From: Promethearchaeota archaeon
Lineage (GTDB): Archaea; Asgardarchaeota; Lokiarchaeia; Sigyniarchaeales; SOKP01
Assembly (NCBI GenBank): GCA_019058245.1
Contig: JAHPZJ010000013.1
Span: forward strand, 406,289-470,288
DNA: 64,000 nucleotides
Reading direction: 5' to 3'
Shown here: positions 17,621-35,758 of the stretch, piece after piece
Position numbering within the stretch: position 1 is the first letter of the stretch
Layout: every line of letters begins with the position of its first letter
Made by a program: the position numbers and the translations under genes
Notes under the pieces: generated by a model
Database searches by the model: none
Told to the model about the DNA's origin: nothing
What the model saw: the letters and a program-made list of their open reading frames with translations, nothing else

Positions 17621-18436
17621 TTAATATCGTGGATTTTCTTTATATCTATTAAATAAAACTTTTAATCGATCTTGAGGCATTCCAAGACGCCATAGTAACG
17701 ACATTAGTATCCATTTCCAAATAGTTCTGAAGATTCCATATTTTTCAAATCGACGAGTGGAATTATATATCCCGATGCGGTAGATACATGCAATCCCTTT
17801 ACCTCCACGCCAATTACTTATACTTTTAGGCAATACTCTTTTTGCAAACTTCATTAGACGTCGACCAAAATCGAAACCTTCACAAATCCACATTGGTGCG
17901 AATCCATTTAGAGCTTCAAAAACCCATTTCCTTACAAATATAGCATTATCTGCGGGATATGCTTTAAAAGTTTGAAATAGTATGTTTCCAACCCAACCAA
18001 ATGTGTAAACTGCCGTTCGCATAAAGCTATTTGGATTTGAATTATTATCCCATTTCCATTTCTTTGTAAAAGCTCCACCAAGTATTAAAGGATTTCTAAG
18101 ACGGCCAAAGAGCAAAAATAACGTACCAGGTCGAAGTTTTATATCTGCATGAAGAAATAAGAGAATATCAGATTTTGCAATCTCACCACCAAGATTTGAT
18201 TGTAGTACTCTTCCTCGAGGAGACTCAATTACGATATCTGCTAACTTTCTCGCGATTTCTTTTGTATTATCAGTAGATCCCCCATCACTTACAATAATTT
18301 CAATAGGAATGGAAAGACCAGAAGGAAATAGAGCAGCTCTTTTAACTGAAGCAATTGTATCAGCTATATAATTAGCTTCATTAAGAGTAATAATTATTAT
18401 ACTAATCTTTGGTGAAGTCTTGAACTGAATAGTTAT
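17621..18436 (-). CDS. GT2 glycosyltransferase (TIGR04283-like); start extended to a probable ATA codon
   Basis: Frame is open for 107 codons upstream of the listed ORF and encodes KISIIIITLNEA, IIVSDGGSTD, SPRGR and LLFLHAD. GGAGG SD lies 6 nt before ATA at 18436. Confidence 0.85.
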   Translation of the reverse strand: MTIQFKTSPKISIIIITLNEANYIADTIASVKRAALFPSGLSIPIEIIVSDGGSTDNTKEIARKLADIVIESPRGRVLQSNLGGEIAKSDILLFLHADIKLRPGTLFLLFGRLRNPLILGGAFTKKWKWDNNSNPNSFMRTAVYTFGWVGNILFQTFKAYPADNAIFVRKWVFEALNGFAPMWICEGFDFGRRLMKFAKRVLPKSISNWRGGKGIACIYRIGIYNSTRRFEKYGIFRTIWKWILMSLLWRLGMPQDRLKVLFNRYKENPRY

Positions 18437-18447
18437 AAAGATCCTCC

Positions 18448-19071
18448 CTAATCTGGTAATTCGAAACTAATTTTATTTGATAATTTAGAATTCTTAAGGT
18501 CATCGAGTACATCAATATCGGAAAGAGTTGGTAATAGAAAATATTTTATACCAAGCTTATTAATATCTGCTATAGTATCAGAAAATACGGAGGATGTACT
18601 CCACTTTTTATTTATAAACAATTCTTGATGTATTTCTTTAAGTCCCATCAAATAGTATCCTCCATCTTTTGCTGGTCCCAGTACAACATCATAATTTAGT
18701 AGTTGGTCAAATGCTTCATTAATAATCCTAGCAGTTAATTCCAAACAATCGCTTCCTATTATTACAGCTTTACGGTATCGTTGTAGCGTGATCCTAAAGG
18801 CTTGCAGCATCTTTTCTCCAAAATCAGAACCTTTTTGTAAAAATTTTATAAAGAATTCTTTTTCCCAAAGATCATTCTCATCGATATAATCCGAATAAAA
18901 TAATAAACGCGCACATGGAACTTCAAGTGAAATAGATCGTGTGTGTTCAATTAATACTTTATAAACAGTTAAAGCACTCTCTTCTCCAATATCTGCAGCT
19001 AAACGTGTTTTTACACATCCTATATTAGGATTTCTTACAAGGATTATTAAGCCTTTATCATTCATTTTCAT
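18448..19071 (-). CDS. TIGR04282/DUF2064-like nucleotidyl/glycosyltransferase
   Basis: VKTRLA, QKGSDFGEKM, IIGSDC, VLGPAKDGGYYLMG, LSDID; ATGA overlap with the radical SAM stop suggests start 19071. Confidence 0.9.
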   Translation of the reverse strand: MKMNDKGLIILVRNPNIGCVKTRLAADIGEESALTVYKVLIEHTRSISLEVPCARLLFYSDYIDENDLWEKEFFIKFLQKGSDFGEKMLQAFRITLQRYRKAVIIGSDCLELTARIINEAFDQLLNYDVVLGPAKDGGYYLMGLKEIHQELFINKKWSTSSVFSDTIADINKLGIKYFLLPTLSDIDVLDDLKNSKLSNKISFELPD

Positions 19072-20066
19072 ATAACTATTGTTGTGCAATTATTATTTAC
19101 TCTAACTAGATCTTTTGAGTTTGCTTTTTGCCACTCAAGGTTTATTTCTTCCCCACGACACCAAGGGCAATATTCATCATGATTATTTAATTTTCCTCTT
19201 ATTGCTCGCCTACTAGCGCAACCTCCTTGACATAAACAATCTGCGGCAACTGGAGGGATGGCTTGAGCCATTATAAATTGTTGAGTTTCAAAGATTTTTT
19301 CACCAAGCTCTAATAGGTCATTGATATCGGGAATGGGTTCAATAGCTTTATTATTTCCCCAATATACACAAGGGATTACTTGTCCTTTAGGATTAATTCG
19401 TATGCTTTTACGACCACAAGGAGAAAAAATCTCCCCCAGTCCTAGCGCGGCTCTTACAACAGGTTCAAAACAAGAGATGACCTTACCTTTGCTAAATAAT
19501 AGTCGAAATCCCTCCCAGAATTCCTTATAATTAAGCTGATAATCGTCTGTATTTACAGATTGAAAAACACTAACACGCAAGTTAACTCCATATGAACGGG
19601 CAAGATCTACCATCTGGTCCATCTTGTCGTAATTAACAGACATCATTGTAGTAAGTATAGTCAATTCAATACCTGCGTTATCGCATCGTTTAATAGCCCT
19701 ATTTACTAATTCCCAATTTCCTTTACCACGAAATTTATCTTGTTCTTGACTCGTAGGGAAATCAATGGAAACTTCAATATCATTGAAAAGTTCTAAATAT
19801 TTATCGGAAAGTCTACTTATAGTCAAACCGTTGGAGGCTAAACTGAGTCGCACATCTCGACAAGCTAAAAAGTTAAGAATTTCAAGGAATTCTGGATTTA
19901 ATATATTTTCTCCAGTACCCATCCCTATCGAACTAATAGGTATCGCTTTGCATAGCTTTTGAATTTGTTTTAAAGTAATATTAGAGATCTGCGTTTTATC
20001 ACGATAACAATGTGTACAATTTAAATCACAATTATTGGTTAAACCAATTCCAATTGAATATTTCAT
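19068..20066 (-). CDS. Radical SAM protein with C-terminal SPASM/twitch-like Cys cluster
   Basis: CDLNCTHC; C-terminal PCGRKS...PC...CLCQGGC...YC. Confidence 0.9.
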   Translation of the reverse strand: MKYSIGIGLTNNCDLNCTHCYRDKTQISNITLKQIQKLCKAIPISSIGMGTGENILNPEFLEILNFLACRDVRLSLASNGLTISRLSDKYLELFNDIEVSIDFPTSQEQDKFRGKGNWELVNRAIKRCDNAGIELTILTTMMSVNYDKMDQMVDLARSYGVNLRVSVFQSVNTDDYQLNYKEFWEGFRLLFSKGKVISCFEPVVRAALGLGEIFSPCGRKSIRINPKGQVIPCVYWGNNKAIEPIPDINDLLELGEKIFETQQFIMAQAIPPVAADCLCQGGCASRRAIRGKLNNHDEYCPWCRGEEINLEWQKANSKDLVRVNNNCTTIVI

Positions 20067-20106
20067 TTATTCCATCTCCATATATTTAAGATTAAATTAC
20101 CTCACT

Positions 20107-20928
20107 TTATTGACTAATACCTATTGCGATGAAATATACGATACTCGAGAAGAAATGGTTAAGTTGAAGTCGATTTTCTAGTTCCAACATCCAAGCATTA
20201 TACTCTTCTTCTGTGATTATTTTCTGATCTAATGCACCAGATGCAGCGTGTCTAATGGATTGAGTCAACGAGCTATTTTCATCTGTTGCAATTGAAACTA
20301 AAGGACAAATGTTAATATCCTTCAAGCCATTAGCATTGAGCAAACTAAATAATTGTCTACCACTCCAATTGTTCCCATCCTTATGATCAGTTCTCCAATG
20401 GAGTATTTTGCGCGTTACCTTGCGGTTTGGATGATCAACAGTTAGTGTCTCAAAATCCCAATCCATCAAGGCAATTTTTCCTCCGGATTTAACAGTGCGA
20501 ATTAATTCCTCTACAACTCTTAGAGGATCATTTACATGAAGCAATAATCTTGTAGCGAAAACACTATCGAAATTATTATCCTGACAAGGAAGATCTTCCG
20601 CATCTCCAACCTTAAATTGAATTAAATTAACTAAATTATCTTTACTTGCTTGTTCAAGAGCGAATGATATAATGCCTGGAGAATTATCGATCCCAGTTAT
20701 ACTTCCTCCCGGTTCAAGAAATGGTGCTATCAACCGAGATAATACTCCACTACCACATCCAACATCTAATAAATGTTCTCCAGGTTTTGGATTGAGTATA
20801 TCTCTGAATCTTAAATTGATTTGGACCTGATCTGGATATTTTGAGCGTTTTTCAATATATTCAGCCATTTTTTTTGCTGTTTCTGGCTTTTTATTTGATT
20901 CCTTAGACCATAAGCTTGTTGGAACCAT
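20107..20928 (-). CDS. Class I SAM-dependent methyltransferase (UbiE/PRK08317-like)
   Basis: LLDVGCGSG, GDAEDLP, FDSV, LLHVNDP, KSGG. Confidence 0.9.
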   Translation of the reverse strand: MVPTSLWSKESNKKPETAKKMAEYIEKRSKYPDQVQINLRFRDILNPKPGEHLLDVGCGSGVLSRLIAPFLEPGGSITGIDNSPGIISFALEQASKDNLVNLIQFKVGDAEDLPCQDNNFDSVFATRLLLHVNDPLRVVEELIRTVKSGGKIALMDWDFETLTVDHPNRKVTRKILHWRTDHKDGNNWSGRQLFSLLNANGLKDINICPLVSIATDENSSLTQSIRHAASGALDQKIITEEEYNAWMLELENRLQLNHFFSSIVYFIAIGISQ

Positions 20929-21167: not shown

Positions 21168-22007
21168 TTATTTTGATTCAAAGATTTTGCGAATTTTGTC
21201 AAACCTTTCATTTCTCGATAATCTATTGGCTATCGGGTTATGATCTCCATATAATCCCTTATGATATACTTGTCTGTGAGTTTGATAAAAAAGTCCTATA
21301 GTGAACCTATGTAAATTCCTAGCAGCAGTTAAAGCTTCTTCCATTGTTTTCGGTTCTTTACCAATGTATTCAATCTTATCCTTGAATTCCTCCCATTTGT
21401 GGTAGGGCATCGCAGGTTGCAAAATTTCGATAAAGGAAAATCCTTCATGCTCTATAGCTTTCACAAGAGTTTCCGTTAAATGTTTAATTTCACCAGAATA
21501 GCATCTTGCTACAAATGTTGCTCCTGCTTCAATAAGTAAAGAAATGGGATTAAAAGGAATCTCAAAACTTCCCATTGGGGTTGATGGTCCTTTCCAACCC
21601 TCCTGAGTTAAGGGAGAAAATTGACCTGTCGTGAGAGCATAAACTCCATTATTATGCAAGATCATAGTGATATCCATGTTACGTTTTGCTGCAAAGAGAG
21701 TATGAGCTAAACCTTCTCCTAAACCACTCCCATCACCAGAAAAAGTTATCACTTTTAAATTAGGATTAGAAATTTTGATCCCAGAAGCAGTGGTTATTTC
21801 TCTTCCATGTAATGAATAAATCCCGCTTAAATTAAAATAATCAAAAATTTTTGCATGACATCCAATTCCAGCGGTCATAATCATATTCTCTCGTTTAATA
21901 CCTTTTTGCTCTAGTATGGGAAGTGCATTTCTAATTGCTGTAAAAATCCCGAAATTACCGCATCCAGGACACCATGTAATTTCAGCATATGTTTTAAGAT
22001 CTTCCAT
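21168..22007 (-). CDS. korB: 2-oxoacid:ferredoxin oxidoreductase beta subunit
   Basis: WCPGCG, GIGC, HGR, GDG TPP motif, NNGVYALTTGQ. Confidence 0.9.
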   Translation of the reverse strand: MEDLKTYAEITWCPGCGNFGIFTAIRNALPILEQKGIKRENMIMTAGIGCHAKIFDYFNLSGIYSLHGREITTASGIKISNPNLKVITFSGDGSGLGEGLAHTLFAAKRNMDITMILHNNGVYALTTGQFSPLTQEGWKGPSTPMGSFEIPFNPISLLIEAGATFVARCYSGEIKHLTETLVKAIEHEGFSFIEILQPAMPYHKWEEFKDKIEYIGKEPKTMEEALTAARNLHRFTIGLFYQTHRQVYHKGLYGDHNPIANRLSRNERFDKIRKIFESK

Positions 22008-22008
22008 A

Positions 22009-23670
22009 TTATTTGAGCACCTCCTTTATTTGATTTGATAAATCTATAGGATCAAATGGACGACCATCATATTGTTTTATTGTATTTCTTATCTTTAATC
22101 CAGCTCTTTCGTTTAAAAGCTTAGTAAATTGACCAGTAGAACTTTGTTCAATAACAATATTATCATGATCTTTAAACTCTTCTATTTCCCATATAGGTAA
22201 AGGACTCAAATATATTGGGGCAATAGTAGTAGGATTTAATCTTCCATATTTAAGAGCCTCTAATACACTCATATAAGTAGAACCATAAGTGAATATGTTA
22301 GTAGGATTTTCACCTCGAATTATTTTAACAGTTTTTTGCCCTTTTAAATAATCTATAAGTGAATCTAACTTTTTATTTCTTTTATCATGCATAAATGAAA
22401 TCATCTTTGCATTTTCTGTAGTAATTCCTAATTCATCATGCTCATAACTGTTCCATTTTATTATCTTTTTAGATGGTGGAAATAACATGGGGGAAATTCC
22501 ATCATCAGTATCCAAATATCGTTTATATTCGCCCTCTTTATGTATTTTTGGCTCGGCCCACTTAGATTTTTCTAATTCAGCTTCTATTGTCATACTACTC
22601 TCTGAAAGATGTTTTTCAGTTAATAATATTCCTGGTGTCTGAAATTTCCATACTAGATCTAACATTTCGGCAGTAAGATAATATGCCTCTCTAATTGTAG
22701 TAGGAGAAGCAACTATTCTTAGAAAATCTCCATGAGCTGCAGTTAAAGCGAAAGCTAAATCTGCCTGTTCTGTATAAGTAGGCACCCCTGTTGCAGGACC
22801 TGGTCGCTGAGATAAAACAACTAATACAGGTGCTTCTGTCATACCTGCTAAAGAGAATCCTTCTACCATAAGAGCAAATCCCCCTCCACTCGTACCAACC
22901 ATGGCTCTTGCTCCTGTAAAACTTGAACCAATTGCCATATTAATGACTGCTATTTCACTTTCAGCATGAACTACTGCTAAACCAAAATTTTCAGCTTCCC
23001 TAGCGAGTGTGTGTAAGATTGAGGATGCGGGAGTCATAGGATAACCAAAATATACATCCAATCCTCCAGCTACAGCACCAAAACTAATTGCCTCATTTCC
23101 TGTAAGAATTGATCTTTTTTTATCTCCTCTTTCTAAGTAAAATTTCTTTCCACAAGCAGGATAAACAATATCATATATTGTATTTGCAAAGCTAATATTA
23201 TCTTCTATTCCTCTTGGATATTCCTCTTCAATCATTTGTTTCATTTCTTCTTTTTCGAATCCGATTGTTGCTGCTAATATTGCTATTGCCCCAACTCCAA
23301 ACATTAACTCTTTCATTGGATACTTTTCTGCTTCTGTTGTTAATGATATTCCTATGCCGTTATCAATTTCCTGTTCATCTAAATTAAAAATCATAATCCC
23401 ATTTTCAGCAATATCATTTTTGTGTATTTTATAACTTCGTTGATCAAAATTTACAACCAGATTAGCATTCATATATTGACTACTGATCCATCTAGGGCTT
23501 GTACTTACAACAGAAAAGTTATGTCCACCTCTTATTAAACTCATATAATCATCCATTTGAAACACATGCTGACCTATACTGGAGAATATATGTGCTGCCA
23601 CAGAACCCGCTTTCTTTACACCTTCACCAGCTTTGCCTCCAACTAAAAATGTAAAAACATCTGAATCCAT
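22009..23670 (-). CDS. korA: 2-oxoacid:ferredoxin oxidoreductase alpha subunit (gamma-alpha fusion)
   Basis: GGKAGEG, IRGGHN, YPMTPAS, ESEIA, TSGGG, QRPGPATGVPT. Confidence 0.9.
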   Translation of the reverse strand: MDSDVFTFLVGGKAGEGVKKAGSVAAHIFSSIGQHVFQMDDYMSLIRGGHNFSVVSTSPRWISSQYMNANLVVNFDQRSYKIHKNDIAENGIMIFNLDEQEIDNGIGISLTTEAEKYPMKELMFGVGAIAILAATIGFEKEEMKQMIEEEYPRGIEDNISFANTIYDIVYPACGKKFYLERGDKKRSILTGNEAISFGAVAGGLDVYFGYPMTPASSILHTLAREAENFGLAVVHAESEIAVINMAIGSSFTGARAMVGTSGGGFALMVEGFSLAGMTEAPVLVVLSQRPGPATGVPTYTEQADLAFALTAAHGDFLRIVASPTTIREAYYLTAEMLDLVWKFQTPGILLTEKHLSESSMTIEAELEKSKWAEPKIHKEGEYKRYLDTDDGISPMLFPPSKKIIKWNSYEHDELGITTENAKMISFMHDKRNKKLDSLIDYLKGQKTVKIIRGENPTNIFTYGSTYMSVLEALKYGRLNPTTIAPIYLSPLPIWEIEEFKDHDNIVIEQSSTGQFTKLLNERAGLKIRNTIKQYDGRPFDPIDLSNQIKEVLK

Positions 23671-23834: not shown

Positions 23835-24854
23835 TTAATCTATTATCTTTCTAATTTTTTTATATCTTTTGATATTTCTTCTAATTATTATAGGAAAATA
23901 ACATAACTCAAGAAAGAATAATAGTAAAAAAAATTGAATATATACTGAATAGACTATCCAGGAAAATATTAAAAGAAGAGACAATCCTTCAATAAATATA
24001 AGAATCCATATTAGGATTATTAATCTATGATAATATAACCCTCTGATTAGAACATCATTTGTAATTGTATTTTCACATGATCGACAGAGTCTATTATCGA
24101 ATCGTATTTTATTGCCACACTTTGGGCAAAAATATAAATCTTTTTTAATAAAATATAACGTTCCAATTAACGTAGAAAAGACTAAAATTGAAGAAATAAT
24201 TGTGGTATAAGATATAATGAATTTATTATAAGTATAGAGAAGTCTGATATTCCCAATCATAATATAATAATCCAATTCTGGATTATTTTCTGTAATATTA
24301 ATACAAAAGGCAATTTCACTTAGTTGTTTCTCTTCAAAAATTTCGGTTAAATCAATAGTTTGTTCAAGATCATATTCTTCCCAAGGGTGTTGTGTAATCT
24401 CAGACATGTTGAAGTTATCGATTATTTCTTCGTGGTTAGGTTTATTATTCCAAGTTATCTCAGAATAATTCAAATTTGATTCAATCAATATTAAATTTAA
24501 TTCAACATCTTCTACATCAGGACCATTAATATTATGTAAACTGTAAGAAGCAACAACAAGGTGAAGTGCTTCTGTTTCTTTTGGCAATATTGCAAGGTTA
24601 TAATGGATAAATACTTCACAGGAATTTCCAAATTCTGTGTTTTTGCTTGAAGGAAAAAAATAATTCACATCAGGATTGCTTTGGTCCACATGTGTTAAAC
24701 GGTCTACTTCTAATTCTCTGAGATATTTAGTAGTTATACCAATATTCCCACCAAATAAAGGAATAAAATTAATAATTAATAGAAAGAAAGATAGGATTGC
24801 TAAACTAATAAAAATTACTTTAGTTCTCAAATTCTTAATATATTGTGTTTTCAT
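23835..24854 (-). CDS. Membrane protein with extracellular domain (DNRLRE-like) and zinc ribbon; paralog of 24879-25907
   Basis: N-terminal TM, VDQSNPDVNY and ITWNNKP, second TM, CPKC...CRSC, two C-terminal TMs. Confidence 0.8.
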   Translation of the reverse strand: MKTQYIKNLRTKVIFISLAILSFFLLIINFIPLFGGNIGITTKYLRELEVDRLTHVDQSNPDVNYFFPSSKNTEFGNSCEVFIHYNLAILPKETEALHLVVASYSLHNINGPDVEDVELNLILIESNLNYSEITWNNKPNHEEIIDNFNMSEITQHPWEEYDLEQTIDLTEIFEEKQLSEIAFCINITENNPELDYYIMIGNIRLLYTYNKFIISYTTIISSILVFSTLIGTLYFIKKDLYFCPKCGNKIRFDNRLCRSCENTITNDVLIRGLYYHRLIILIWILIFIEGLSLLLIFSWIVYSVYIQFFLLLFFLELCYFPIIIRRNIKRYKKIRKIID

Positions 24855-24878
24855 TTTAATTCGATTTTACTTAGTATC

Positions 24879-25907
24879 TTAGTTTTTATAGTTTCTTACT
24901 TTTTTACGTATTTTTATCGAAAAGAAAATTATAGAGAAAATTAGTAAAGCTCCAACGATACAACCAATCTCCATAGCTCCAAAAAAAGGAAGGATGGAAT
25001 AAAAAATGTTAAAGGATGTGGTTATAAGAAGAAAAATTACCTCAAAAAAAGCAAATATCCATAATAAAATTATTAATATTTGATAGTACAAACTAGTTCT
25101 TAGCATTTCATGTTCAAAAGGTTTCTGGCATGATGAACACCATAATTCAGTAAAATTCCTCTTTGTTTTACAATTTGGACAATAATATATACCTTTTCTC
25201 AGATAAACTATTGTTCCAATTAACATAATAAAAATTATAATTGAAGAAATAATTGCTGTATAAGATATAAGAAATTGTTCATAACTATATAGAAGCTTGA
25301 TTCCGGATAGATAAACAATATCCTTCAATTCTTCATTATTTTCCGTAATATTAATACAAAAACTAATCTCTGTTTGTTGTCTTTCTTCAAAAATTTCTGT
25401 TAAATCAACGGTTTTTTCAAGATCATAATATTCTACAGTAAAATGATTCCTAATTGCAGAAGCATTTACAGTTTCGATTATTTCTTCATGCTTAGGTTTA
25501 TTATTCCAATTAATTTCGGAAGAATTCCAATTTGAGTCAACCAAAATTAAATTTATTTCAAAATCTTTAATATAAAACATATAAGAATAGGATTGAAAAC
25601 CATTAATCGTAAAATATAACTTTTTTGTTTCTTTTGGTAATGATTGAAGATTAAAATGGACAAAAAATTGACAAGAATTTCCAACAATAGTATTATACAT
25701 TAAATAATTATAATAGTTCATATCTGGATTACTTTGATTTACATATGCTACACGATCCCAGCCTAAATCTCTGGTATATTTAGTAGTTATACCTACATTC
25801 CCACTAAAGAAAGGAATAAAATTAATAATCAATAGAAAAGAAGATATGATCGCTAAACTAATAAAAATTACTTTGGTCCTCAAATTATTGATATTTTGTT
25901 TTTTCAT
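24879..25907 (-). CDS. Membrane protein with extracellular domain (DNRLRE-like) and zinc ribbon; paralog of 23835-24854
   Basis: Same architecture: YVNQSNPDMNY, INWNNKP, CPNC...CSSC. Confidence 0.8.
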   Translation of the reverse strand: MKKQNINNLRTKVIFISLAIISSFLLIINFIPFFSGNVGITTKYTRDLGWDRVAYVNQSNPDMNYYNYLMYNTIVGNSCQFFVHFNLQSLPKETKKLYFTINGFQSYSYMFYIKDFEINLILVDSNWNSSEINWNNKPKHEEIIETVNASAIRNHFTVEYYDLEKTVDLTEIFEERQQTEISFCINITENNEELKDIVYLSGIKLLYSYEQFLISYTAIISSIIIFIMLIGTIVYLRKGIYYCPNCKTKRNFTELWCSSCQKPFEHEMLRTSLYYQILIILLWIFAFFEVIFLLITTSFNIFYSILPFFGAMEIGCIVGALLIFSIIFFSIKIRKKVRNYKN

Positions 25908-25918
25908 CTTTATCCCTT

Positions 25919-27268
25919 TTAAATTAATTTATTTGTTTGATATTTATCAATAGAAATGATTGGTTCTAATTCAGGTAATTTTTTTTTTGGATTTTTTAAT
26001 GACTTTAATTCTGATTTAACATCATTTTTAATTTGGGATTTATTCTGGACTTTTGTTATATTTAATAGTTTCAATGTTCTTTTATAATACCTAATTGCTT
26101 TTTGCTTTAAATTTAAATTAACAAAGACTCTTGCCAAATTCCAATAATAGAGAAAATTATCTCTGTATAACTTTATTGCAGTTAAGAATTTATTTAATGC
26201 ATTTTTATAATCTTGTTTATAAAAACTTTTAATACCTTGATAGAATATATCTAAAGAATATCTTCTTATAATATTAGGAGAAAATAGCTTGAGATGATGT
26301 TTTTGAATATCTTGAGATAATTGCTCAATCTTTTTTACCATCTTATCTTTCTCAGTTTTAGAAGAAAGTAGTGTTTCAATCATACCCAAACCATATGATT
26401 CAATAGAAGCAAATATTATTTTCTGACTTCCTGGTATTAAAGGGGCTTTTATTAAAGCGTTTAGTAAAATTTCATGAAATTTATATCTAATTAGAATTTC
26501 TGGTAATTCTAAAATTTGAGAGCCATCAAAATCAGCGAAAAATTTAAAATTCTTCATTTCGTCTATAAAGATTTTAACAATTAGGGGAGAAATTATTAAT
26601 GAATCTTTAATCAATTTAAAATTTATTTTTCTATTATCATTTTTTATAAATTTAATTGTCTTTATAAGTAAATTATTTAAAAGATCTTCTTGTTCTTTTG
26701 TAATAAATAAATCTTTAAAATCTATTATCTTATTTATCAATAATTTTTTACGAATACACGTAAAACCTTGAAATATTTCAACGATATTACTCATTTCTGG
26801 CTTATTACACACAAATTCTACAGAAGGGATTGATTCTTTATTATAAAAACTTGTTTGAACTATATTTTCAAATCCAATTTTTTCTAAAATTTCCTGCAAC
26901 AATTGAGGAGGAAAGCAAAATTTATGTTCTAAACCTTCATGAGGAAGACCATATATCCAACTTAAAATATCCTTTTTTTTTTCATAATCTGAATTTAAAT
27001 ATGTGCGAAAAGCTTTTTCTAAATCAGGAGTCTCTAAGATCAATTTACCCTTGGGTTCTAAAACTCTAAAATATTCACTTATAGCATAAATGGATTGGTA
27101 TAATCCTAAATGCTCAATTAAATGAATTGCCTTTACTTCTTGGCAGGAAAAATCTTCAAACTCAAGATTTACTGCTGACATCTTTTTGTCAGCAATTAGA
27201 TCCTCATAAAGATCTATATTAATGTATTCCGGTTCAAATTGCTTCCCACAACCAATATTCAATTTCAT
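25919..27268 (-). CDS. Class I SAM methyltransferase domain fused to C-terminal TPR repeats
   Basis: KLNIGCG, HLIEHL, RVLEPKG, ETPDL; TPR-like YKNALNKFLTAIKL...YYWNLARVF...AIRYYKRTL. Confidence 0.82.
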   Translation of the reverse strand: MKLNIGCGKQFEPEYINIDLYEDLIADKKMSAVNLEFEDFSCQEVKAIHLIEHLGLYQSIYAISEYFRVLEPKGKLILETPDLEKAFRTYLNSDYEKKKDILSWIYGLPHEGLEHKFCFPPQLLQEILEKIGFENIVQTSFYNKESIPSVEFVCNKPEMSNIVEIFQGFTCIRKKLLINKIIDFKDLFITKEQEDLLNNLLIKTIKFIKNDNRKINFKLIKDSLIISPLIVKIFIDEMKNFKFFADFDGSQILELPEILIRYKFHEILLNALIKAPLIPGSQKIIFASIESYGLGMIETLLSSKTEKDKMVKKIEQLSQDIQKHHLKLFSPNIIRRYSLDIFYQGIKSFYKQDYKNALNKFLTAIKLYRDNFLYYWNLARVFVNLNLKQKAIRYYKRTLKLLNITKVQNKSQIKNDVKSELKSLKNPKKKLPELEPIISIDKYQTNKLI

Positions 27269-27525
27269 TTTTTATCCTTAAAATCTTTTATACTTATACT
27301 AGAATATTTTGTTCCGCGAGCGTATATGGGATCTGTGGTTTTTGAATATAAAATTAAAGTTACATTCCAAAAGAAAAATACAAAAATCGTGAGAATTACA
27401 ATCAACATTAAAGCAAGGATTAATGGATATCGATTTTTAAAAAAAAGAGTATTAGTAATTTCTTTACGTGATAAACCCAATTCTTTTCCAATCTTGTAAA
27501 GTTGTATAATATTTTTATGGATCAA
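27265..27525 (-). CDS. Small single-TM protein, candidate radical SAM substrate (copy 3)
   Basis: 86 aa, TTG start; KIGKELGLS, TM, PIYARGTKYSSI; stop overlaps the next start (ATGA). Confidence 0.82.
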   Translation of the reverse strand: MIHKNIIQLYKIGKELGLSRKEITNTLFFKNRYPLILALMLIVILTIFVFFFWNVTLILYSKTTDPIYARGTKYSSISIKDFKDKK

Positions 27526-27551
27526 ATTTAATCATCCATTTTTATCACTCA

Positions 27552-27821
27552 TCATTTAATTTTCTTTTTATCTTTAAAATCTTTCATACTAATACTAGAA
27601 TATAAAGTTCCACGAGCGTATATGGGATCTGTGGTTTTTGAATATAAAATTAAAGCTACATTCCAAAAGAAAAATGCAAAAATCGTGAGAATTACAATCA
27701 GCATTAAAGCAAGGATTAATGGATATCGATTTTTAAAAAAAAGAGTATTAGTAATTTCTTTACGTGATAAACCCAATTCTTTTCCAATCTTGCAAAGTTG
27801 TATAATATTTTTATATATCAA
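27552..27821 (-). CDS. Small single-TM protein, candidate radical SAM substrate (copy 2)
   Basis: 89 aa, TTG start; 80/86 aa identical to copy 3; PIYARGTLYSSI. Confidence 0.82.
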   Translation of the reverse strand: MIYKNIIQLCKIGKELGLSRKEITNTLFFKNRYPLILALMLIVILTIFAFFFWNVALILYSKTTDPIYARGTLYSSISMKDFKDKKKIK

Positions 27822-27823
27822 AT

Positions 27824-28114
27824 TTAAACGCCCCCTTTTGTATAATATATTAGTTTATTTTTATTTTTAAAATCTTTTATACCAATACTGGAATAATAAG
27901 TTCCTTGAGCATATACTGGTTCTTGAGATTTTGCATAAAAGATTAACATTATATTCCAAAAAACAAGTGCAAAAACCGAGAGAATTACAATCATTATTAA
28001 AACAATTACCAATGAATGTCGATTTTTAAAAAAAAGAGTTCTATTGATTTCTTTGTGTGATAATCCTAATTCTTTTCCAATCTTATACAATTGAACAATA
28101 TCTTTCAAAACCAA
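27824..28114 (-). CDS. Small single-TM protein, candidate radical SAM substrate (copy 1)
   Basis: 96 aa, TTG start; KIGKELGLS, TM, PVYAQGTYYSSI. Confidence 0.82.
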   Translation of the reverse strand: MVLKDIVQLYKIGKELGLSHKEINRTLFFKNRHSLVIVLIMIVILSVFALVFWNIMLIFYAKSQEPVYAQGTYYSSIGIKDFKNKNKLIYYTKGGV

Positions 28115-28133
28115 ATTATTCCCTCTAATTATT

Positions 28134-29258
28134 TCATTTCAATAAAAGTTTTTGATATAGGTATTTATAATTTGAAATTTTAGAATCAATCTTCCACCTA
28201 AATGGGAAAGATTTATTTTTAAATAATTCATTCTCAATTGCTCTTAAACAATATGGATTATCAGAACTATTTAAAGCTAACCTTGTACCTAAACATCCAG
28301 CTTTACATTTTTTAAACATCTTACATGTAGCACAATAATTTTTTAAGTCTATTTTTTCAGAATATTGAGCATATTTCAAATCAAATCTATAATTTATGAT
28401 ATTTGAAAGTGTAGTGGTTCTAATATTACCTTCAATAAAATCATCAGGTAAAGTTAAACACCCCTTAATATTACCATTGCTTTGAATTCCTAAAACAGAT
28501 TTACCTGCTTGACAACCAATCCATGGTTCCAATCCTAATTCTGGTAAAAAATTTGAAAAATATCCAAAACAATGAGCACCTATTAGGGGCAATTCTTTTA
28601 TTGAATACTTTTGAAGGCTTGATGCGATAAACATAGCTACTCCATAAAATTCTTTTCGAGAAATCACCAAATCTCTTGGAAATCTTCCAATCGGTATGGC
28701 TATTTGGATTTGCCAGGCAATTTTTCTATTAATTAATAAAGCACGAATTAGTTTCAATTCCTTAAAGTTGAGTTTACTAACTGTAGTTATAACACTAACC
28801 GGGATGTTTTCTTTTTGGAGTAGTTTTATTGATTCTAATACCTTATAATATGCTCCTTTAATCCCCCTTATATAGTCATGTGTTTCAGGAATTGCGCCAT
28901 CTAAACTCAAAGAAACACATTCTGGTTGTAATTCTTTTAGCTTAGTAAGGTGATTTTTTATCACTAAACCATTAGAAACAATAGTAAGTTTCATTTTTTG
29001 TTTTTTAATTTCTTGTGCGACTTCATACCAATCATCTCTTAAGAATGGTTCACCACCCATTAATGCAATCCCATCATATCCACAAGATCTTAAATCATTG
29101 ACTAATAATAATGCTTCTTCTGTACTGAGTTCATTAGAGCGAATTTTGCCGGCTGATGAGCCACAATGAATACATTTACTATTGCATTTTAATGTAAATT
29201 CCCATACAGCACATTTATGTTTGAAGAAATTGGATAATTGATAATGTAAATTTGACAT
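28134..29258 (-). CDS. Radical SAM/SPASM domain protein (peptide-maturase-like)
   Basis: AVWEFTLKCNSKCIHCGSSAG, GGEP, SLDG; SPASM GCQAG...IKGC...CATCKMFKKCKAGC...YC. Confidence 0.92.
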   Translation of the reverse strand: MSNLHYQLSNFFKHKCAVWEFTLKCNSKCIHCGSSAGKIRSNELSTEEALLLVNDLRSCGYDGIALMGGEPFLRDDWYEVAQEIKKQKMKLTIVSNGLVIKNHLTKLKELQPECVSLSLDGAIPETHDYIRGIKGAYYKVLESIKLLQKENIPVSVITTVSKLNFKELKLIRALLINRKIAWQIQIAIPIGRFPRDLVISRKEFYGVAMFIASSLQKYSIKELPLIGAHCFGYFSNFLPELGLEPWIGCQAGKSVLGIQSNGNIKGCLTLPDDFIEGNIRTTTLSNIINYRFDLKYAQYSEKIDLKNYCATCKMFKKCKAGCLGTRLALNSSDNPYCLRAIENELFKNKSFPFRWKIDSKISNYKYLYQKLLLK

Positions 29259-29439: not shown

Positions 29440-30561
29440 TTAAAATAAGATAAAATCACAAGAGGGACATTTCTTTCTATCTCCTTTTATAATTTTACTA
29501 CAATTTGGACAAATTTTTATTGAAGGTTTTTTGTTATTTTGTTCACTTTCGATTTGTGCTCTAATTGATAATGCCATTGGATCAACAGCTTGAATAATCT
29601 TAGGTTTTGTCCTTGCTTCTAACTCATGTAAATAATCTACAATATTTTTCTTTTGAACTTGAGTCTTTTTTGCAATAGAAGGAATTTTTCCTGCTTGTAC
29701 GTCATTCACATAACCACTATCAAGTTTTAGAATGTTAAAGCAATTGTGGCATCTGAACACGTTAGAGATTCCTATATTAGATGTTTTAGCCCATTGAGAC
29801 CAACATACCTTATGAGCAACGGTTTCACAGGAAGGACACCTCACTATACCTTCATTACCTTGCTGAAAGCAAATTGAACAAGTAACTGTTTCGTTTACTA
29901 TTTCAGGTTCATCTGCTAAATTAGTATAAAATGGTTGATTATCAGGTAAGATCATTCTTAATCGTTGCTTGATAAATGAAGGTTCTGATACATATTTTTT
30001 CTCTGAAAGATTAGTTAAAATGGGATTTAACTCTTTAAGTTTAGAAATTTCATGCAAACTCCCATTGCATAATTTTACTAGTCTGATTAATTTAGAATGC
30101 AATTCTGGATTAGGGTCTCCAACTCTTACGATATCAATAAAAAGAGGCATATCTTTTACAACTTTAATTAGTTCTTCTATTGGTGGAAGATATTCTGGAG
30201 GGATATTATAGGCTCCTTTATCTATTAAAATTATTAATCGAAATATTTTTTCTGAAATTTTTTTATATACCTCAATAATAAATGTTATTGCTAAGAATAT
30301 CCCCCCCGCAATATTTGCATTAGTAATGTGTCCAGCCAATGATTTTAATGTATCAAGAATAATATCTGGATTAAATGTAAAATGTTCCAAATAATTTGGT
30401 CCTTCATTTTTAAATACAATAAGATTAAATCGATCAGATGGATCAATACTTTGTTTATTTTTCATAAATTCTGATATTGAATTATAGACCTGACGTAATT
30501 TAATTATATTTGGAGTGAAACCATAAAAAATGAGACAATCTTCGCTTTTTGTGGATTCCAT
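29440..30561 (-). CDS. vWA-like domain + C4HC3 (PHD/RING-like) finger + C-terminal zinc ribbon
   Basis: DRFNLIVF, IAGGIFLA, RLIILID, IDIVRVG, LCNG; CSIC...CPSC-x4-H-x2-C...CHNC; CPNC...CPSC. Confidence 0.75.
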   Translation of the reverse strand: MESTKSEDCLIFYGFTPNIIKLRQVYNSISEFMKNKQSIDPSDRFNLIVFKNEGPNYLEHFTFNPDIILDTLKSLAGHITNANIAGGIFLAITFIIEVYKKISEKIFRLIILIDKGAYNIPPEYLPPIEELIKVVKDMPLFIDIVRVGDPNPELHSKLIRLVKLCNGSLHEISKLKELNPILTNLSEKKYVSEPSFIKQRLRMILPDNQPFYTNLADEPEIVNETVTCSICFQQGNEGIVRCPSCETVAHKVCWSQWAKTSNIGISNVFRCHNCFNILKLDSGYVNDVQAGKIPSIAKKTQVQKKNIVDYLHELEARTKPKIIQAVDPMALSIRAQIESEQNNKKPSIKICPNCSKIIKGDRKKCPSCDFILF

Positions 30562-30789: not shown

Positions 30790-31866
30790 TTAACGTTTTT
30801 TTTTCTTACTTTTCTTTTTTGAACTTTCAGGCTCTTCTTTCTTCGTTTCAATCATTGCCCTTACATCAGATGCGAATGGATCTTCAGTTTGTATGACTTG
30901 TGGTGTGCTCTGAGCTTCAATTTCTCGTAAATAATCAACTATATCTTTCTTTTTCATCTTATTTAATTCAGCAATTGTGGGAATTTTACCTGCTTGTACA
31001 TCATTAATATAATTCTTATCTAATTTTAAGATATTAAAACAATTGTGACAACGATATACATGTGGAATTCCAATATGAGAGGTTTGTGCCCATTGTGCCC
31101 AACATACTTCATGGGCAACTGTTTGACATGATGGACATCTTATGAGCCCTTCATTACCCTGTTGAAAGCAAATTGAACAAGTTGAAATATCAGTAACTCT
31201 CTCAGGTTCATCAGCTAAATTTATATAAAACATTTGATTTTCCTCTGGTATCCTACGAATTTCTTGCTTGCTAAACGCGGGTTGTATAATTTTTTTTTTA
31301 TATGAAAGTTCCATTAGTAGAGGATCTAACTCATCAATACTACTAATCTCATAGAATTCTCCTTTAGTTAAATTCACTAATTTATTCAACCTATTACGCT
31401 CTTCATAATCTGGTTGCCCTATATATATAACATCAATAAAAAACGGCATATCTTTAACTTTATTAATTAATTCTTCTAAAGCAGGAAGGTATTGGGATGG
31501 AATTGCATATGCACCATCATCTACTATGATTAAAAGACGAAAGATCTTCTCTGAGATTTTTTTATATACTTCTATTATAAATGTAGTTGCTACGAATACA
31601 CCACCAGCGATACTTGCTCTGGAAATATTTTTTTCTACTGATTTTAGCATTGATAAAACTAGGTTTGTGTCAAAAGCAAAATGATCCAAATAATTTGGAC
31701 CATCAGGAAGAAATAAAATCAAATTAAACCTGTCTGAAGGATCATTAGCTTGCTTTATTTTCATAAACTCTGAAATTGAATTATAAAGGTCTTTGAATTT
31801 TGTTAATTCTGGAGTTAATCCATAAAAAATCAAGCAATCTTCACTCTTGGAGACTTTAAGAGTCAT
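30790..31866 (-). CDS. vWA-like domain + C4HC3 finger, paralog of 29440-30561
   Basis: Collinear and highly similar to its neighbour; ends in a Lys-rich tail with no zinc ribbon. Confidence 0.75.
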   Translation of the reverse strand: MTLKVSKSEDCLIFYGLTPELTKFKDLYNSISEFMKIKQANDPSDRFNLILFLPDGPNYLDHFAFDTNLVLSMLKSVEKNISRASIAGGVFVATTFIIEVYKKISEKIFRLLIIVDDGAYAIPSQYLPALEELINKVKDMPFFIDVIYIGQPDYEERNRLNKLVNLTKGEFYEISSIDELDPLLMELSYKKKIIQPAFSKQEIRRIPEENQMFYINLADEPERVTDISTCSICFQQGNEGLIRCPSCQTVAHEVCWAQWAQTSHIGIPHVYRCHNCFNILKLDKNYINDVQAGKIPTIAELNKMKKKDIVDYLREIEAQSTPQVIQTEDPFASDVRAMIETKKEEPESSKKKSKKKKR

Positions 31867-32183: not shown

Positions 32184-32441
32184 ATGCAAATATACCGTTT
32201 AAAAATAAACAAGAATATCTGTATTGGATGTAATGACTGTGTCGTAAGCTGTCCCTTAAATTTCCAACAGTTAAAGGATAAAGGGTATTTAAATCCAGAA
32301 AATGCAGTGCTTTTAGTAAGAAATGGAGTGGCTTATGATATTTACGATGAAAGCAGAGATATAAATTGTGATGGATGTGGTGTATGTCTTAAAAACTGTC
32401 CTGTTTCTGCTATTGAATTACAATTAATTGAAGTTAAATGA
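32184..32441 (+). CDS. fwdG: 4Fe-4S ferredoxin, formylmethanofuran dehydrogenase subunit G-like
   Basis: Two CxxCxxCxxxCP motifs; first gene of the fwd cluster. Confidence 0.72.
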   Translation: MQIYRLKINKNICIGCNDCVVSCPLNFQQLKDKGYLNPENAVLLVRNGVAYDIYDESRDINCDGCGVCLKNCPVSAIELQLIEVK

Positions 32442-32451
32442 GGTATGAAAA

Positions 32452-33189
32452 ATGTCATTTCCTAAAATTTCAAGATCAATTAGTAAAGAACTTGAACATG
32501 TGAAAGTTCAATTTCTTACTGAAAGTATAGAACTTCTTTTGGATCGAACTAAATGTGTTGGGTGTGGTACTTGTGCTAGAGTTTGTCCAAAAGAGGCAAT
32601 TTCACGTGGTCCAGTAGCTGCTGCTCGTCGATTTCCTAATATGGAAGATATTATTCCAGAAATCTATGACCCGAAAAAGTGTGTTTTTTGTGGTACATGT
32701 GTTGTAATGTGCCCTTTTAGTGCTTTAAAGCTAAAAAAAGATGGGGAACTAATAGAATTAAACGATATACAAATTGTTAAAGAAAAAGTTGTCCCAAAAT
32801 TAGAATTTGAAGCTAAAAAGATAAAGGATATTGCAGGAATAGAAAGAATAGTCAAACCCTATGCTGACGGTGAAATAAGCATTGTTGATGAGGAATGTGC
32901 TGGTGGATGTGAAGCTTGTGCAGATGTATGCCCCAGTGGAGCTATAACTGTTCCTGAAAAATCGGATAAAGGATGGGAGACTGTTCCTAATGTTGTTGTT
33001 GATCCTGAAAAATGCATATTTTGTGGATCTTGTGATAATGCTTGTCCAACTGGAGCTATCAAATTAAAAATAACTGATATTAAAACTTCAGGTGAATTTA
33101 GTGAAATGTTTTGGGTACCACTTTTAGAAAGAATAAAAACACTAAGGTGGAGTGAAAAAAAGGAGGAAAAAACTGATGAGAATAAATAA
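32452..33189 (+). CDS. fwdF: Polyferredoxin, formylmethanofuran dehydrogenase subunit F-like
   Basis: Four ferredoxin motifs; fwd context. Confidence 0.78.
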   Translation: MSFPKISRSISKELEHVKVQFLTESIELLLDRTKCVGCGTCARVCPKEAISRGPVAAARRFPNMEDIIPEIYDPKKCVFCGTCVVMCPFSALKLKKDGELIELNDIQIVKEKVVPKLEFEAKKIKDIAGIERIVKPYADGEISIVDEECAGGCEACADVCPSGAITVPEKSDKGWETVPNVVVDPEKCIFCGSCDNACPTGAIKLKITDIKTSGEFSEMFWVPLLERIKTLRWSEKKEEKTDENK

Positions 33190-33571
33190 TTTAATTTTAA
33201 TAACTTGCCGGACAATTAATCAAGGCGTAGCACTTGAAGGAGGAAAAAATACAATTGAGAATGTTAGAGCTGCTGGTATTTGTGCCTTTGATAAAGAGGA
33301 TTTCAAAAAATTAGACTGTCCTGTTGGAACACCTGTTAAAGTAATTACAGAACACGGAGAAGTTGTAGTATATTCAACAATTTCAGAAGAAGGTCCCCAT
33401 CCAGGAATTATTTTCATACCGATGGGACCATGGGCAAATCAAGTTGTAAATCCGGATTCTCAATCATGTGGTACACCTACGTATAAAGGGATGAAAGCAA
33501 GCGTAGAACCTTTACCAAATGGAAAAGTGTTAAATGCCGTAAATTTAATCAAACTCTTAAAGGTGGCATAA
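33176..33571 (+). CDS. fwdD: Formylmethanofuran dehydrogenase subunit D
   Basis: LITCRTINQG, IFIPMGPWAN, GTPTYKG; ATG at 33176 follows GGAGG. Confidence 0.9.
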   Translation: MRINNLILITCRTINQGVALEGGKNTIENVRAAGICAFDKEDFKKLDCPVGTPVKVITEHGEVVVYSTISEEGPHPGIIFIPMGPWANQVVNPDSQSCGTPTYKGMKASVEPLPNGKVLNAVNLIKLLKVA

Positions 33572-33573
33572 AT

Positions 33574-34902
33574 ATGGCCGATAAGAATATAAGAACTGTA
33601 ACAGATGTAATTTGTCCTTTTTGTGGGACTCTCTGTGATGATTTGGAAGTAGATATTGATAATAAAGAAGAAAAAATAGTAGAAGTAAGAAATGGTTGTC
33701 AAATCGGAACTAAAAAATATTTTTCTTCTAATCCAAGTGTACATCGGTATGATAAACCACTTATTAAAGATAATGGATCTTATAAAGCAATATCATGGGA
33801 TGAAGCCATAGATAAGGCAGCAGATATATTAATAAAAGCTAAAAGACCCTTACTATATGGATTCTCAAGTACAGAATGTGACGCTCAAGGAAAAGGAGTA
33901 GAATTAGCTGAACTATTAGGGGGAATTTTAGACAATACAGCATCAGTTTGTCATGGTCCCTCCTTACTTGCGATTCAAGATGTTGGAGCTCCAACTTCTA
34001 CTTTAGGGGAATACAAAAATCGAGCGGATTTAGTAGTCTTTTGGGGAAGTAATCCTGTTCATGCTCATCCAAGACATCTTGGAAGATATAGTGATTTTAT
34101 ACGTGGATATTTTAGAAAAGACGGCTCAAATGACAGGTTTATTGTAGTTGTAGATCCAAGAAATACTCATACAGCTCAACTTGCAGATATGTATATACAA
34201 TTAAATCCTAGTGAAGACTATGAACTGATAAATGCAATTAGGGCAATGTTAAGAGGGGTTGAATTAGAGGGGGATGAAATCTCAGGAGTTCCAAAAAAGA
34301 TAATTATAGAATTAGTAAATGCTTTAAAATCTTGTAATTATGGTGTAATCTTTTTCGGTATGGGTTTAACTCAAACTTTATCTCATCATAGAAATATAGA
34401 TGCTGCTATTTGTTTAGTGAGGGAATTGAATGATCATACTAAATTTTTATTAACTCCTATGCGTGGACATTATAATGTTGCGGGGGCAAATCAAGTGTTT
34501 ACATGGCAAACGGGATATTCCTATTCAATAGATTTTTCTAGAGGCTATCCTCGGTATAATCCTGGAGAATTTTCTTCTGTTGATTTATTAATGAGGGATG
34601 AGATTGATGCTTCTTTGATTGTAGCTTCTGATCCTGCCAGTAATTTTCCAGCGGCAGCCGTGAAAAATATGTTTAAATACCCTTTGATTTCTATCGAGCC
34701 CCATCATACGCCCACTTCAGTTAATGCGGATATCATACTTCCTCCGGCTATAGCAGGAATAGAATGTGAAGGAACGGCGTATCGTATGGATAGTGTTCCT
34801 TTAAGATTACGAAAAGTTAAGGATGCTCCTGGAGATTGTTTAACAGATAAAGAAATTTTAGAACGATTAGTAGAAGCTGTAAAAAAGAAAAAAGGGGAAT
34901 AA
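33574..34902 (+). CDS. fwdB: Formylmethanofuran dehydrogenase subunit B
   Basis: CPFCGTLCDD, ASVCHGPS, KNRADL, HPRH, MRGHYNV, YRMD. Confidence 0.95.
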   Translation: MADKNIRTVTDVICPFCGTLCDDLEVDIDNKEEKIVEVRNGCQIGTKKYFSSNPSVHRYDKPLIKDNGSYKAISWDEAIDKAADILIKAKRPLLYGFSSTECDAQGKGVELAELLGGILDNTASVCHGPSLLAIQDVGAPTSTLGEYKNRADLVVFWGSNPVHAHPRHLGRYSDFIRGYFRKDGSNDRFIVVVDPRNTHTAQLADMYIQLNPSEDYELINAIRAMLRGVELEGDEISGVPKKIIIELVNALKSCNYGVIFFGMGLTQTLSHHRNIDAAICLVRELNDHTKFLLTPMRGHYNVAGANQVFTWQTGYSYSIDFSRGYPRYNPGEFSSVDLLMRDEIDASLIVASDPASNFPAAAVKNMFKYPLISIEPHHTPTSVNADIILPPAIAGIECEGTAYRMDSVPLRLRKVKDAPGDCLTDKEILERLVEAVKKKKGE

Positions 34903-34906
34903 AATA

Positions 34907-35758
34907 ATGGTAGATATCAAATTAAAATTGAAAAAAGCACCAGAATTTCCTTTAGAAGCTGATGTTATAACACCAGATCAATTTGCTGGAAAGTCAGCAG
35001 CACAAATTAAAAAATTAATAGTGTATCATGGGAATGAAGAAAAAACTTTAGGAGAATTCTTTGATGTCACTGGAAATGGAAGTGAAGTTAATGATATTAA
35101 AATTATAATCGATGGAGATCTCTCAAATGTAAAACGTATTGGAGAAAAAATGACTGGTGGCGAAATTATTGTAAATGGGAATGTTGGAATGCATGTAGGG
35201 AGTAAAATGTCGGGAGGAAAAATATTAGTAAATGGAAATGCTGATGATTGGGCTGGTGCTATGTTAAATGGTGGAGAATTAGAAATAACTGGGAATGCTG
35301 GTAATTATGTGGGGGCTGCATACAGAGGATATTGGAAAGGAATGCAAAATGGAGTAATAAAAGTGAAAGGGAAAATCGGAAATGAAGCTTTATCATGGGT
35401 TACTGGATCAAAACCCGGAAATAGATTTCCAACTCTTTTATGTGGCAGTGCTGGTTCATTTTTAGGTGTTCATAGTCACGGAGGCACAATTATAGTAGAA
35501 GGTGATTGTGATAGATGCATTGGAGCAGATCAAGTAAGGGGGACAATTGTTGTCAAAGGTAAGATAAATAGAATTCTTCCTTCCTTTAAAAAAATCGGTG
35601 AAGTAAAAGAAATTGAATTAATGAATGGAGAAAAAATAAAGGGTAATTTTATTGAATATAGCGGAGATCACTCTGTAGAAAAAAATCATTCTAAAATTGA
35701 TAAAAAAACTGGAAATATTTCTAATAGCTCAAACGGTAGATTATATGTAGCCGCTTAA
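34907..35758 (+). CDS. fwdC: Formylmethanofuran dehydrogenase subunit C
   Basis: PLEADVITPD, GXGXG beta-helix repeats, AYRG. Confidence 0.93.
   Translation: MVDIKLKLKKAPEFPLEADVITPDQFAGKSAAQIKKLIVYHGNEEKTLGEFFDVTGNGSEVNDIKIIIDGDLSNVKRIGEKMTGGEIIVNGNVGMHVGSKMSGGKILVNGNADDWAGAMLNGGELEITGNAGNYVGAAYRGYWKGMQNGVIKVKGKIGNEALSWVTGSKPGNRFPTLLCGSAGSFLGVHSHGGTIIVEGDCDRCIGADQVRGTIVVKGKINRILPSFKKIGEVKEIELMNGEKIKGNFIEYSGDHSVEKNHSKIDKKTGNISNSSNGRLYVAA

Follow-up and report, generated by a model that had tools for sequence, protein, structure and literature searches.

What does a radical S-adenosylmethionine (SAM) enzyme do beside a row of small membrane proteins in an Asgard archaeon? The question is raised by a block of seven minus-strand genes in a 64,000-nucleotide stretch of a Promethearchaeota genome (the window; GCA_019058245.1, contig JAHPZJ010000013.1, positions 406,289 to 470,288). 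A sequence-only reading of the window had proposed a new system for ribosomally synthesised peptides with post-translational modifications (RiPPs). The seven open reading frames (ORFs) and the six gaps between them (19, 2, 26, -4, 11 and 24 nt) are as it described, and the closest homologs come from Promethearchaeota (Lokiarchaeia), in keeping with the Asgard host that it named. The core of the cassette is a radical SAM/SPASM enzyme, a set of small precursors and a methyltransferase fused to a tetratricopeptide-repeat (TPR) region. The best reading is that this core works like a binary (Y-protein-free) spliceotide system, as a dedicated modification cassette with membrane-anchored substrates, and the case for it is judged evenly poised.

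A splicease-related enzyme and its partners

The enzyme (28134-29258, minus strand, 374 aa) scores above the Pfam cut-offs for both Radical_SAM and SPASM and carries a CxxxCxxC motif at C25, C29 and C32 together with seven SPASM cysteines. In a tree with 11 outgroup rows, 32 archaeal and six bacterial enzymes form a single clade (support 100/100, stem 0.99) set apart from MftC, NirJ, TIGR04053 and the other SPASM enzymes of the genome; within it, the archaeal enzymes are a subclade of their own (92/81). Two of the bacterial rows pass the cut-offs of TIGR04103 and TIGR03913, and RhaX is not among the rows. A W-Q-x-Q motif on strand 6 is common to the clade, appearing as W182-Q183-x-Q185 in the window enzyme, and both of its glutamines are missing from all 10 outgroups in the alignment. 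The best NCBIfam models for the enzyme are TIGR04103 (198.3 bits), TIGR03913 (161.2 bits) and TIGR04133 (155 bits), all below cut-off (725 bits for TIGR04103, of which a true member scores 853, and 591.75 bits for TIGR03913). A plasmid search returns nine matches at E<=1e-30, well above the next ones, and those with names belong to these same families. On its sequence, the enzyme is placed as a sister of the spliceases and not as a member of any defined family. A complex prediction for enzyme and peptide scores 0.44 against 0.40 for a control and is not used as evidence.

Searches with Pfam and NCBIfam find no PqqD or RiPP recognition element (RRE) domain in any gene of the cluster, and no protease or exporter is encoded within it, as had been observed before. 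Binary spliceases need neither an RRE nor a Y protein, and their leader helix is an activator (PMC11414181), so the missing RRE is expected here. The claim that the locus matches no RiPP class was overstated, given an enzyme in the splicease clade and binary spliceases that do without an RRE.

The pairing of peptide and enzyme recurs outside the window. Among 36 other genomes of the genus, searched with these queries, both occur in 18 and neither in 18, and the 18 enzyme orthologs (57-88% identity) have a peptide adjacent on the contig; the genomes are kin and partly incomplete, and amount to one pattern rather than 36 independent tests. More widely, the enzyme clade was followed through 80 loci from Promethearchaeota, Thorarchaeota and Thermoplasmatota. 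A precursor adjoins the enzyme in 79 of them, where the distant ones have weak scores and were accepted on visual inspection; the last locus stops at the enzyme. The methyltransferase-TPR gene, counted as part of the system in the sequence-only reading, accompanies the pair in 17/18 cassette-bearing genus genomes and in 63/80 loci overall; the two genus mismatches, one genome (G034) without it and one (G016) with it alone, both lie at contig ends. Gene order and peptide number (1-4) vary between loci. Peptide homologs occurring mostly apart from the enzyme, or the reverse, would have spoken against the sequence-only reading, and on this count it holds. Within 4 kb of the 80 loci, no protease or exporter family recurs among the neighbours, nor does a further small conserved ORF family that might be a Y protein.

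Some loci depart from the common plan. L046 in genome G057, a relative of the enzyme on a long branch (38% identity), has no precursor or methyltransferase-TPR visible nearby. Several Thermoplasmatota loci, among them L051, L052, L105, L106, L108, L116, L126 and L131, hold two to three paralogous clade enzymes, and nine of these multi-enzyme loci also have a conserved gene for a PaaK/F390-like AMP-dependent ligase.

Precursors and their conserved tyrosines

Precursors A (27824-28114, 96 aa), B (27552-27821, 89 aa) and C (27265-27525, 86 aa), all core genes on the minus strand, are paralogs, as first described, with 61-91% identity and one hydrophobic stretch each. All three start with TTG, and the stop codon of C overlaps the methyltransferase start. 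Judging by its 91% identity to C over 79 aa (dN/dS 0.24), B is a recent duplicate of C. The small ORFs are real genes: they are paralogous, their dN/dS against one another and against orthologs is 0.14-0.53, in line with purifying selection, and their tail motif is limited to this locus (exactly three occurrences among the 11,413 ORFs of the genome, all here; shuffles give 0-1 each). They also stay clear of known membrane subunit families, with Pfam matches at E>=0.03, none in NCBIfam and none usable in Atlas.

Precursor A has a helical leader at about residues 10-23, one membrane helix at about 33-61 and a tail bearing Y68 and Y74. The tail motif, Y-x-x-G-x-x-Y-S-[ST]-[IV]-x-x-x-D-F, runs from Y68 to F82 in A (27869-27913, minus strand; Y74 at 27893-27895) and recurs on the same strand in B (27576-27620; Y74 at 27600-27602) and C (27280-27324; Y74 at 27304-27306). 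A helical leader with G-x-x-L-G-L-x-x-x-[ED]-I is common to all lineages, and the tail consensus across them is Y-x(4,5)-Y-[GAS]-[ST]-[IV]-x-x-x-D-F. Leader and tail are separated by one helix here and in Thorarchaeota, by a short polar linker in most Thermoplasmatota and, in other Promethearchaeota families, by several helices; the tails of these last families end in Y-[GNS]-V-Y. The internal membrane helix, singled out earlier as a precursor trait, is indeed present but is a variant rather than a defining feature, since the X-Y-G precursors of the family in Thermoplasmatota are soluble. Some soluble homologs carry up to seven core repeats behind a single leader, and repeated cores behind one leader are the usual layout of a RiPP precursor. 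The representative peptide matches are 56-174 aa long in 75 of 76 cases.

Y74 is the sole core residue kept in every lineage, and Y68, Y74 and S75 are all present in 38/38 genus peptides. The residue after the invariant tyrosine makes the family a natural series at one homologous site: glycine in 24/24 soluble Thermoplasmatota precursors, glycine in 15 and alanine in 6 of those from Thorarchaeota, and serine in 95/97 peptides of the window lineage. This series spans soluble, single-pass and multi-pass substrates. The repeat precursor P0321 mixes Y-G and Y-A cores, and bacterial GDL precursors likewise carry Y-A.

The methyltransferase-TPR (25919-27268, minus strand, 449 aa) is near-core. Its Pfam matches fall below cut-off, and its structure model (predicted local distance difference test score 89.5) has a class I methyltransferase match and a helical-repeat C-terminus; a fold search returns generic class I matches, none of them specific. 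The model points to a class I SAM-dependent methyltransferase fold at residues ~1-156, fused to a helical/TPR region. The SAM-binding residues, E52-H53 and H115 are invariant. An upstream tyrosine (Y68), five to six residues before the second one, is conserved in 97/99 precursors of the window lineage, 19/19 of Thorarchaeota and 24/24 soluble ones of Thermoplasmatota, the lineages with methyltransferase-TPR. From this came a prediction that genomes whose precursors lack the upstream tyrosine would also lack the methyltransferase gene. On checking, the gene was not found in any of the six genomes of one Thermoplasmatota group, where five of the precursors are without that tyrosine; elsewhere it is present in 4/4 tested genomes whose precursors keep the tyrosine. 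The six genomes are one clade, small and probably incomplete, with L119 as an exception, and Y68 as the methyltransferase target is a lead only, a single event. A role for the TPR part as a membrane-helix chaperone was rejected: it accompanies soluble precursors too and is not found with membrane-type Thermoplasmatota precursors.

The precursor family takes further forms. The 174-aa protein P0306 consists of three leader-plus-core units in tandem, and L120:3246-3632 of two. At L041:8521-9034 (minus strand, genome G060), three soluble peptides of 46-65 aa lie between methyltransferase-TPR and enzyme; they carry G-Y-P and P-P-x-Y-G-V-Y motifs with no recognisable leader and are the smallest form. 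The precursors of L043, L044, L045 and L047, from other Promethearchaeota families, are tandem multi-pass membrane proteins of 143-183 aa that combine a Y-P loop with a tail of the Y-[GNS]-V-Y type, and a multi-pass precursor with a window-type tail (L045:8666-9112) links both forms. In some peptide genes (L026:9364-9624 and L027:3926-4186) the start codon is ATA or another non-standard one, and ordinary ORF callers shorten them; given such starts, the family is likely under-annotated.

Proposed chemistry and its rivals

The small proteins are very probably the substrates of the enzyme. The leader helix would dock on the enzyme or activate it, the part that the RhaA leader plays for RhaX, and the enzyme would attack Y74 in the cytoplasm, before membrane insertion. 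The reaction may be tyramine excision (C8H9NO, -135.07 Da), leaving an alpha-keto-beta-amide at X-Y-S rather than X-Y-G. The methyltransferase-TPR may act on, or read, the upstream Y68, a doubtful step. The modified protein would then insert with its N-terminus inside and its C-terminus outside (N-in/C-out), stay uncleaved and display the edited tail on the cell surface, a course that could equally well be right or wrong; that the product remains a modified membrane protein is plausible, as the sequence-only reading had suggested. By analogy with the protease inhibition reported for synthetic spliceotides (PMC11626197), a surface ketoamide could inhibit proteases. The full combination, X-Y-S backbone splicing of the cell's own membrane-anchored proteins with a methyltransferase on a second tyrosine and a surface ketoamide, would make a spliceotide that is tethered and follows a new site rule, and is unlikely.

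Several observations weigh against this scheme. All characterised spliceases act at X-Y-G in the sites described, and no window peptide has Y-G. About a dozen positions in the enzyme are lineage-specific, none of them attributable to the change from glycine to serine, which is a single event. With TIGR04103 the enzyme reaches 198 bits where the cut-off is 725, and its identity to a member of that family is ~34%; no characterised member of the archaeal sister clade was found, and radical SAM enzymes at such distance often change chemistry. Tyramine excision is still the most likely chemistry because of the enzyme clade and the X-Y-G at the homologous site, and it falls somewhat below even because of the serine and the distance from characterised enzymes. 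As for topology, lysine and arginine are richer on the N side of the membrane helix in 94/102 precursors, and surface display is put at about even because the tail is itself Lys-rich, despite a flanking charge that favours N-in/C-out. An outside-facing tail would moreover require modification before insertion, itself a proposal. Glycosylation sequons were considered as a sign of an outside-facing tail, a use that is not supported: they are not enriched in this lineage (11 seen against 26 expected), and Thorarchaeota have 10 against 4.5 expected.

The same enzyme and peptide might instead carry out other tyrosine chemistry, either a Y68-Y74 or tyrosine-to-backbone crosslink (-2 Da) or a side-chain cleavage without backbone rejoining, which is rather unlikely on balance. 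The conservation of two tyrosines five to six residues apart in 97/99, 19/19 and 24/24 precursors fits a crosslink, there is no Y-G here, and the closest solved folds to the enzyme are the crosslinking maturases SkfB, SuiB and PqqE, though at 15-24% identity and with no solved splicease found in the PDB. The closest named families, on the other hand, are splicease-type. A Tyr-Tyr crosslink is the main rival, weakened by a spacing that is variable (five to six residues, ~20-30 in the soluble G060 peptides and tens across two helices in the multi-pass forms) and by one Thermoplasmatota clade in which the upstream tyrosine is lost and the enzyme retained.

Were the helix a cleavable signal and the protease encoded elsewhere, the modified tail would be freed as a classical released RiPP. 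Soluble and tandem-core homologs exist, the tail of 25-35 aa is a typical core size, and housekeeping peptidases could act in trans; yet the 80 loci have no recurrent protease or exporter family beside them, no consistent A-x-A-type cleavage site follows the helix by eye, and the multi-pass forms of other families keep the same tail, so that a released product is decidedly improbable. Less probable still by far is that the small proteins are activators or membrane tethers and that the substrate is the pair of DNRLRE membrane proteins downstream or some other protein. PlpY offers a precedent as a small helical activator encoded beside PlpX (PMC11414181), likewise in L143, and the leader-like helix is well conserved. 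Most cassettes, however, lack the membrane pair, in which no Y-G/A/S site is conserved, the tail motif occurs in no other ORF of the genome, and a copy number of 1-4 with repeated cores fits substrates. Decay is just as improbable: after the glycine-to-serine change, the peptides would be unmodified and persist as plain membrane proteins. The canonical glycine is gone and half of the genus lacks the cassette, but all Fe-S cysteines and clade residues are intact in 51/51 enzymes of the lineage, Y74 and S75 hardly vary, dN/dS lies well under 1, and the linkage to the enzyme survives rearrangements.

Known systems, accessory proteins and surroundings

A splicease-like cassette has several described relatives. 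The binary spliceotides (RhaX/RhaA, RcsX/RcsA and RasX/RasA, Rheinheimera; PMC11414181, PMC11626197) share an RRE-free radical SAM/SPASM enzyme, the absence of a Y protein and a precursor with a helical leader and a conserved core tyrosine site. The window cassette differs in having X-Y-S instead of X-Y-G, a membrane helix between leader and core, a co-inherited methyltransferase-TPR and an archaeal host, and is known from its sequence alone. Because X-Y-G is absent, it is not classed as a member of the spliceotides. A second comparison is with the type I spliceotides PlpX/PlpY/PlpA, whose model TIGR04103, which presumably corresponds to IPR026482, scores best on the window enzyme; the two share the clade and the W-Q-x-Q signature, and the cassette differs in its 198 bits against 725, the lack of a PlpY and the lack of Nif11 or NHLP leader matches. 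PlpX belongs to IPR026482 (PMC11002830). The GDL-motif maturases (TIGR03913) with DUF1843 peptides lie in the same clade and likewise have several short, paralogous precursors in tandem, bearing Y-G or Y-A, and in Aureibacter a class I methyltransferase, though one without the TPR part, follows the enzyme. The window enzyme reaches 161 of the 592 bits required, its peptides have no DUF1843 match, and the GDL precursors are by contrast soluble with the tyrosine near the N-terminus. The TIGR03913 GDL enzymes are reportedly treated as spliceases in Scott's 2022 work.

Three things set this locus apart: an X-Y-S site shared across its lineage, the DNRLRE pair as an accessory, and the lead concerning Y68. 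A literature search found no description of the cassette family; it did not cover Scott et al. 2022 (Chem 8:2659), and a prior listing there is possible, as archaeal spliceotide clusters were detected in that survey (PMC11626197). Characterised tyramine splicing is bacterial, X-Y-G-dependent and confined to soluble peptides. Splicing of X-Y-S by the enzyme would relax the site requirement of a reaction that already serves in protein labelling, and would suggest that Asgard archaea have surface proteins that are chemically edited. A different activity at Y74 would be a new radical SAM chemistry neighbouring that of the spliceases.

Membrane proteins 1 (24879-25907, 342 aa) and 2 (23835-24854, 339 aa), both on the minus strand, are ~52% identical paralogs whose DNRLRE/CBM96 and zinc-ribbon domains had gone unnamed. 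In each, a signal anchor is followed by a sequon-bearing DNRLRE/CBM96 ectodomain, a helix, a CxxC-CxxC zinc ribbon with four invariant cysteines and two further helices; neither has a conserved Y-G/A/S site. Membrane protein 1 passes both DNRLRE cut-offs (NF033679, PF24517). The known surface domain (PMC9971899, PMC2447325) here forms the ectodomain of a membrane protein that has four helices and a zinc ribbon, and carbohydrate binding is not implied; by its sequence features the pair looks like a sensor or surface protein. It had been taken for a core part, and its distribution does not bear this out. The pair occurs in 10/36 genus genomes (one match weak and on another contig), all cassette-bearing, and was found neither in 8/18 cassette-bearing genus genomes nor in any of 24 genomes from elsewhere. 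On the enzyme tree its occurrence is confined to a single subclade, within which the link is tight (L030 has peptide and membrane gene without the enzyme); in the close relative G014 (L023), the methyltransferase is followed directly by an oxidoreductase gene, with no pair between. The pair is a lineage-specific accessory. In other subclades of the genus, a different multi-pass membrane protein, 208 aa long and unannotated, comes after the cassette (L087:7297-7923, plus strand, and 10 other loci), perhaps in place of the DNRLRE pair.

Gaps of 181 nt upstream and 164 nt downstream delimit the seven-gene block, and the spacing within it suggests co-transcription. A sigma-70 promoter and terminator scan stays at chance level, with a model unsuited to archaea. 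The GC content of the cassette genes (24-29%) is close to the 28.7% of the contig, and recent transfer is not indicated by base composition.

The rest of the window holds other genes of note. A four-gene block at 17621-20928 (minus strand, ~35% GC) resembles an arsenosugar biosynthesis cluster. It encodes a methyltransferase whose ArsM-like matches lie below cut-off, another radical SAM enzyme that is unrelated to the first, and two glycosyltransferases: one exceeds the TIGR04282 cut-off, and the other is TIGR04283-like, its open frame (17621-18466) having no ATG, GTG or TTG near the start. The cassette is flanked by housekeeping context, namely 2-oxoacid:acceptor oxidoreductase genes (21168-23670, minus strand) and a formylmethanofuran dehydrogenase-like block (32184-35758, plus strand). 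Upstream of it lie two VWA-like/RING-finger paralogs (29440-30561 and 30790-31866, minus strand; 61% identical), with further paralogs on contigs C13, C24 and C28, and one such gene is a constant upstream neighbour across the subclade of the window.

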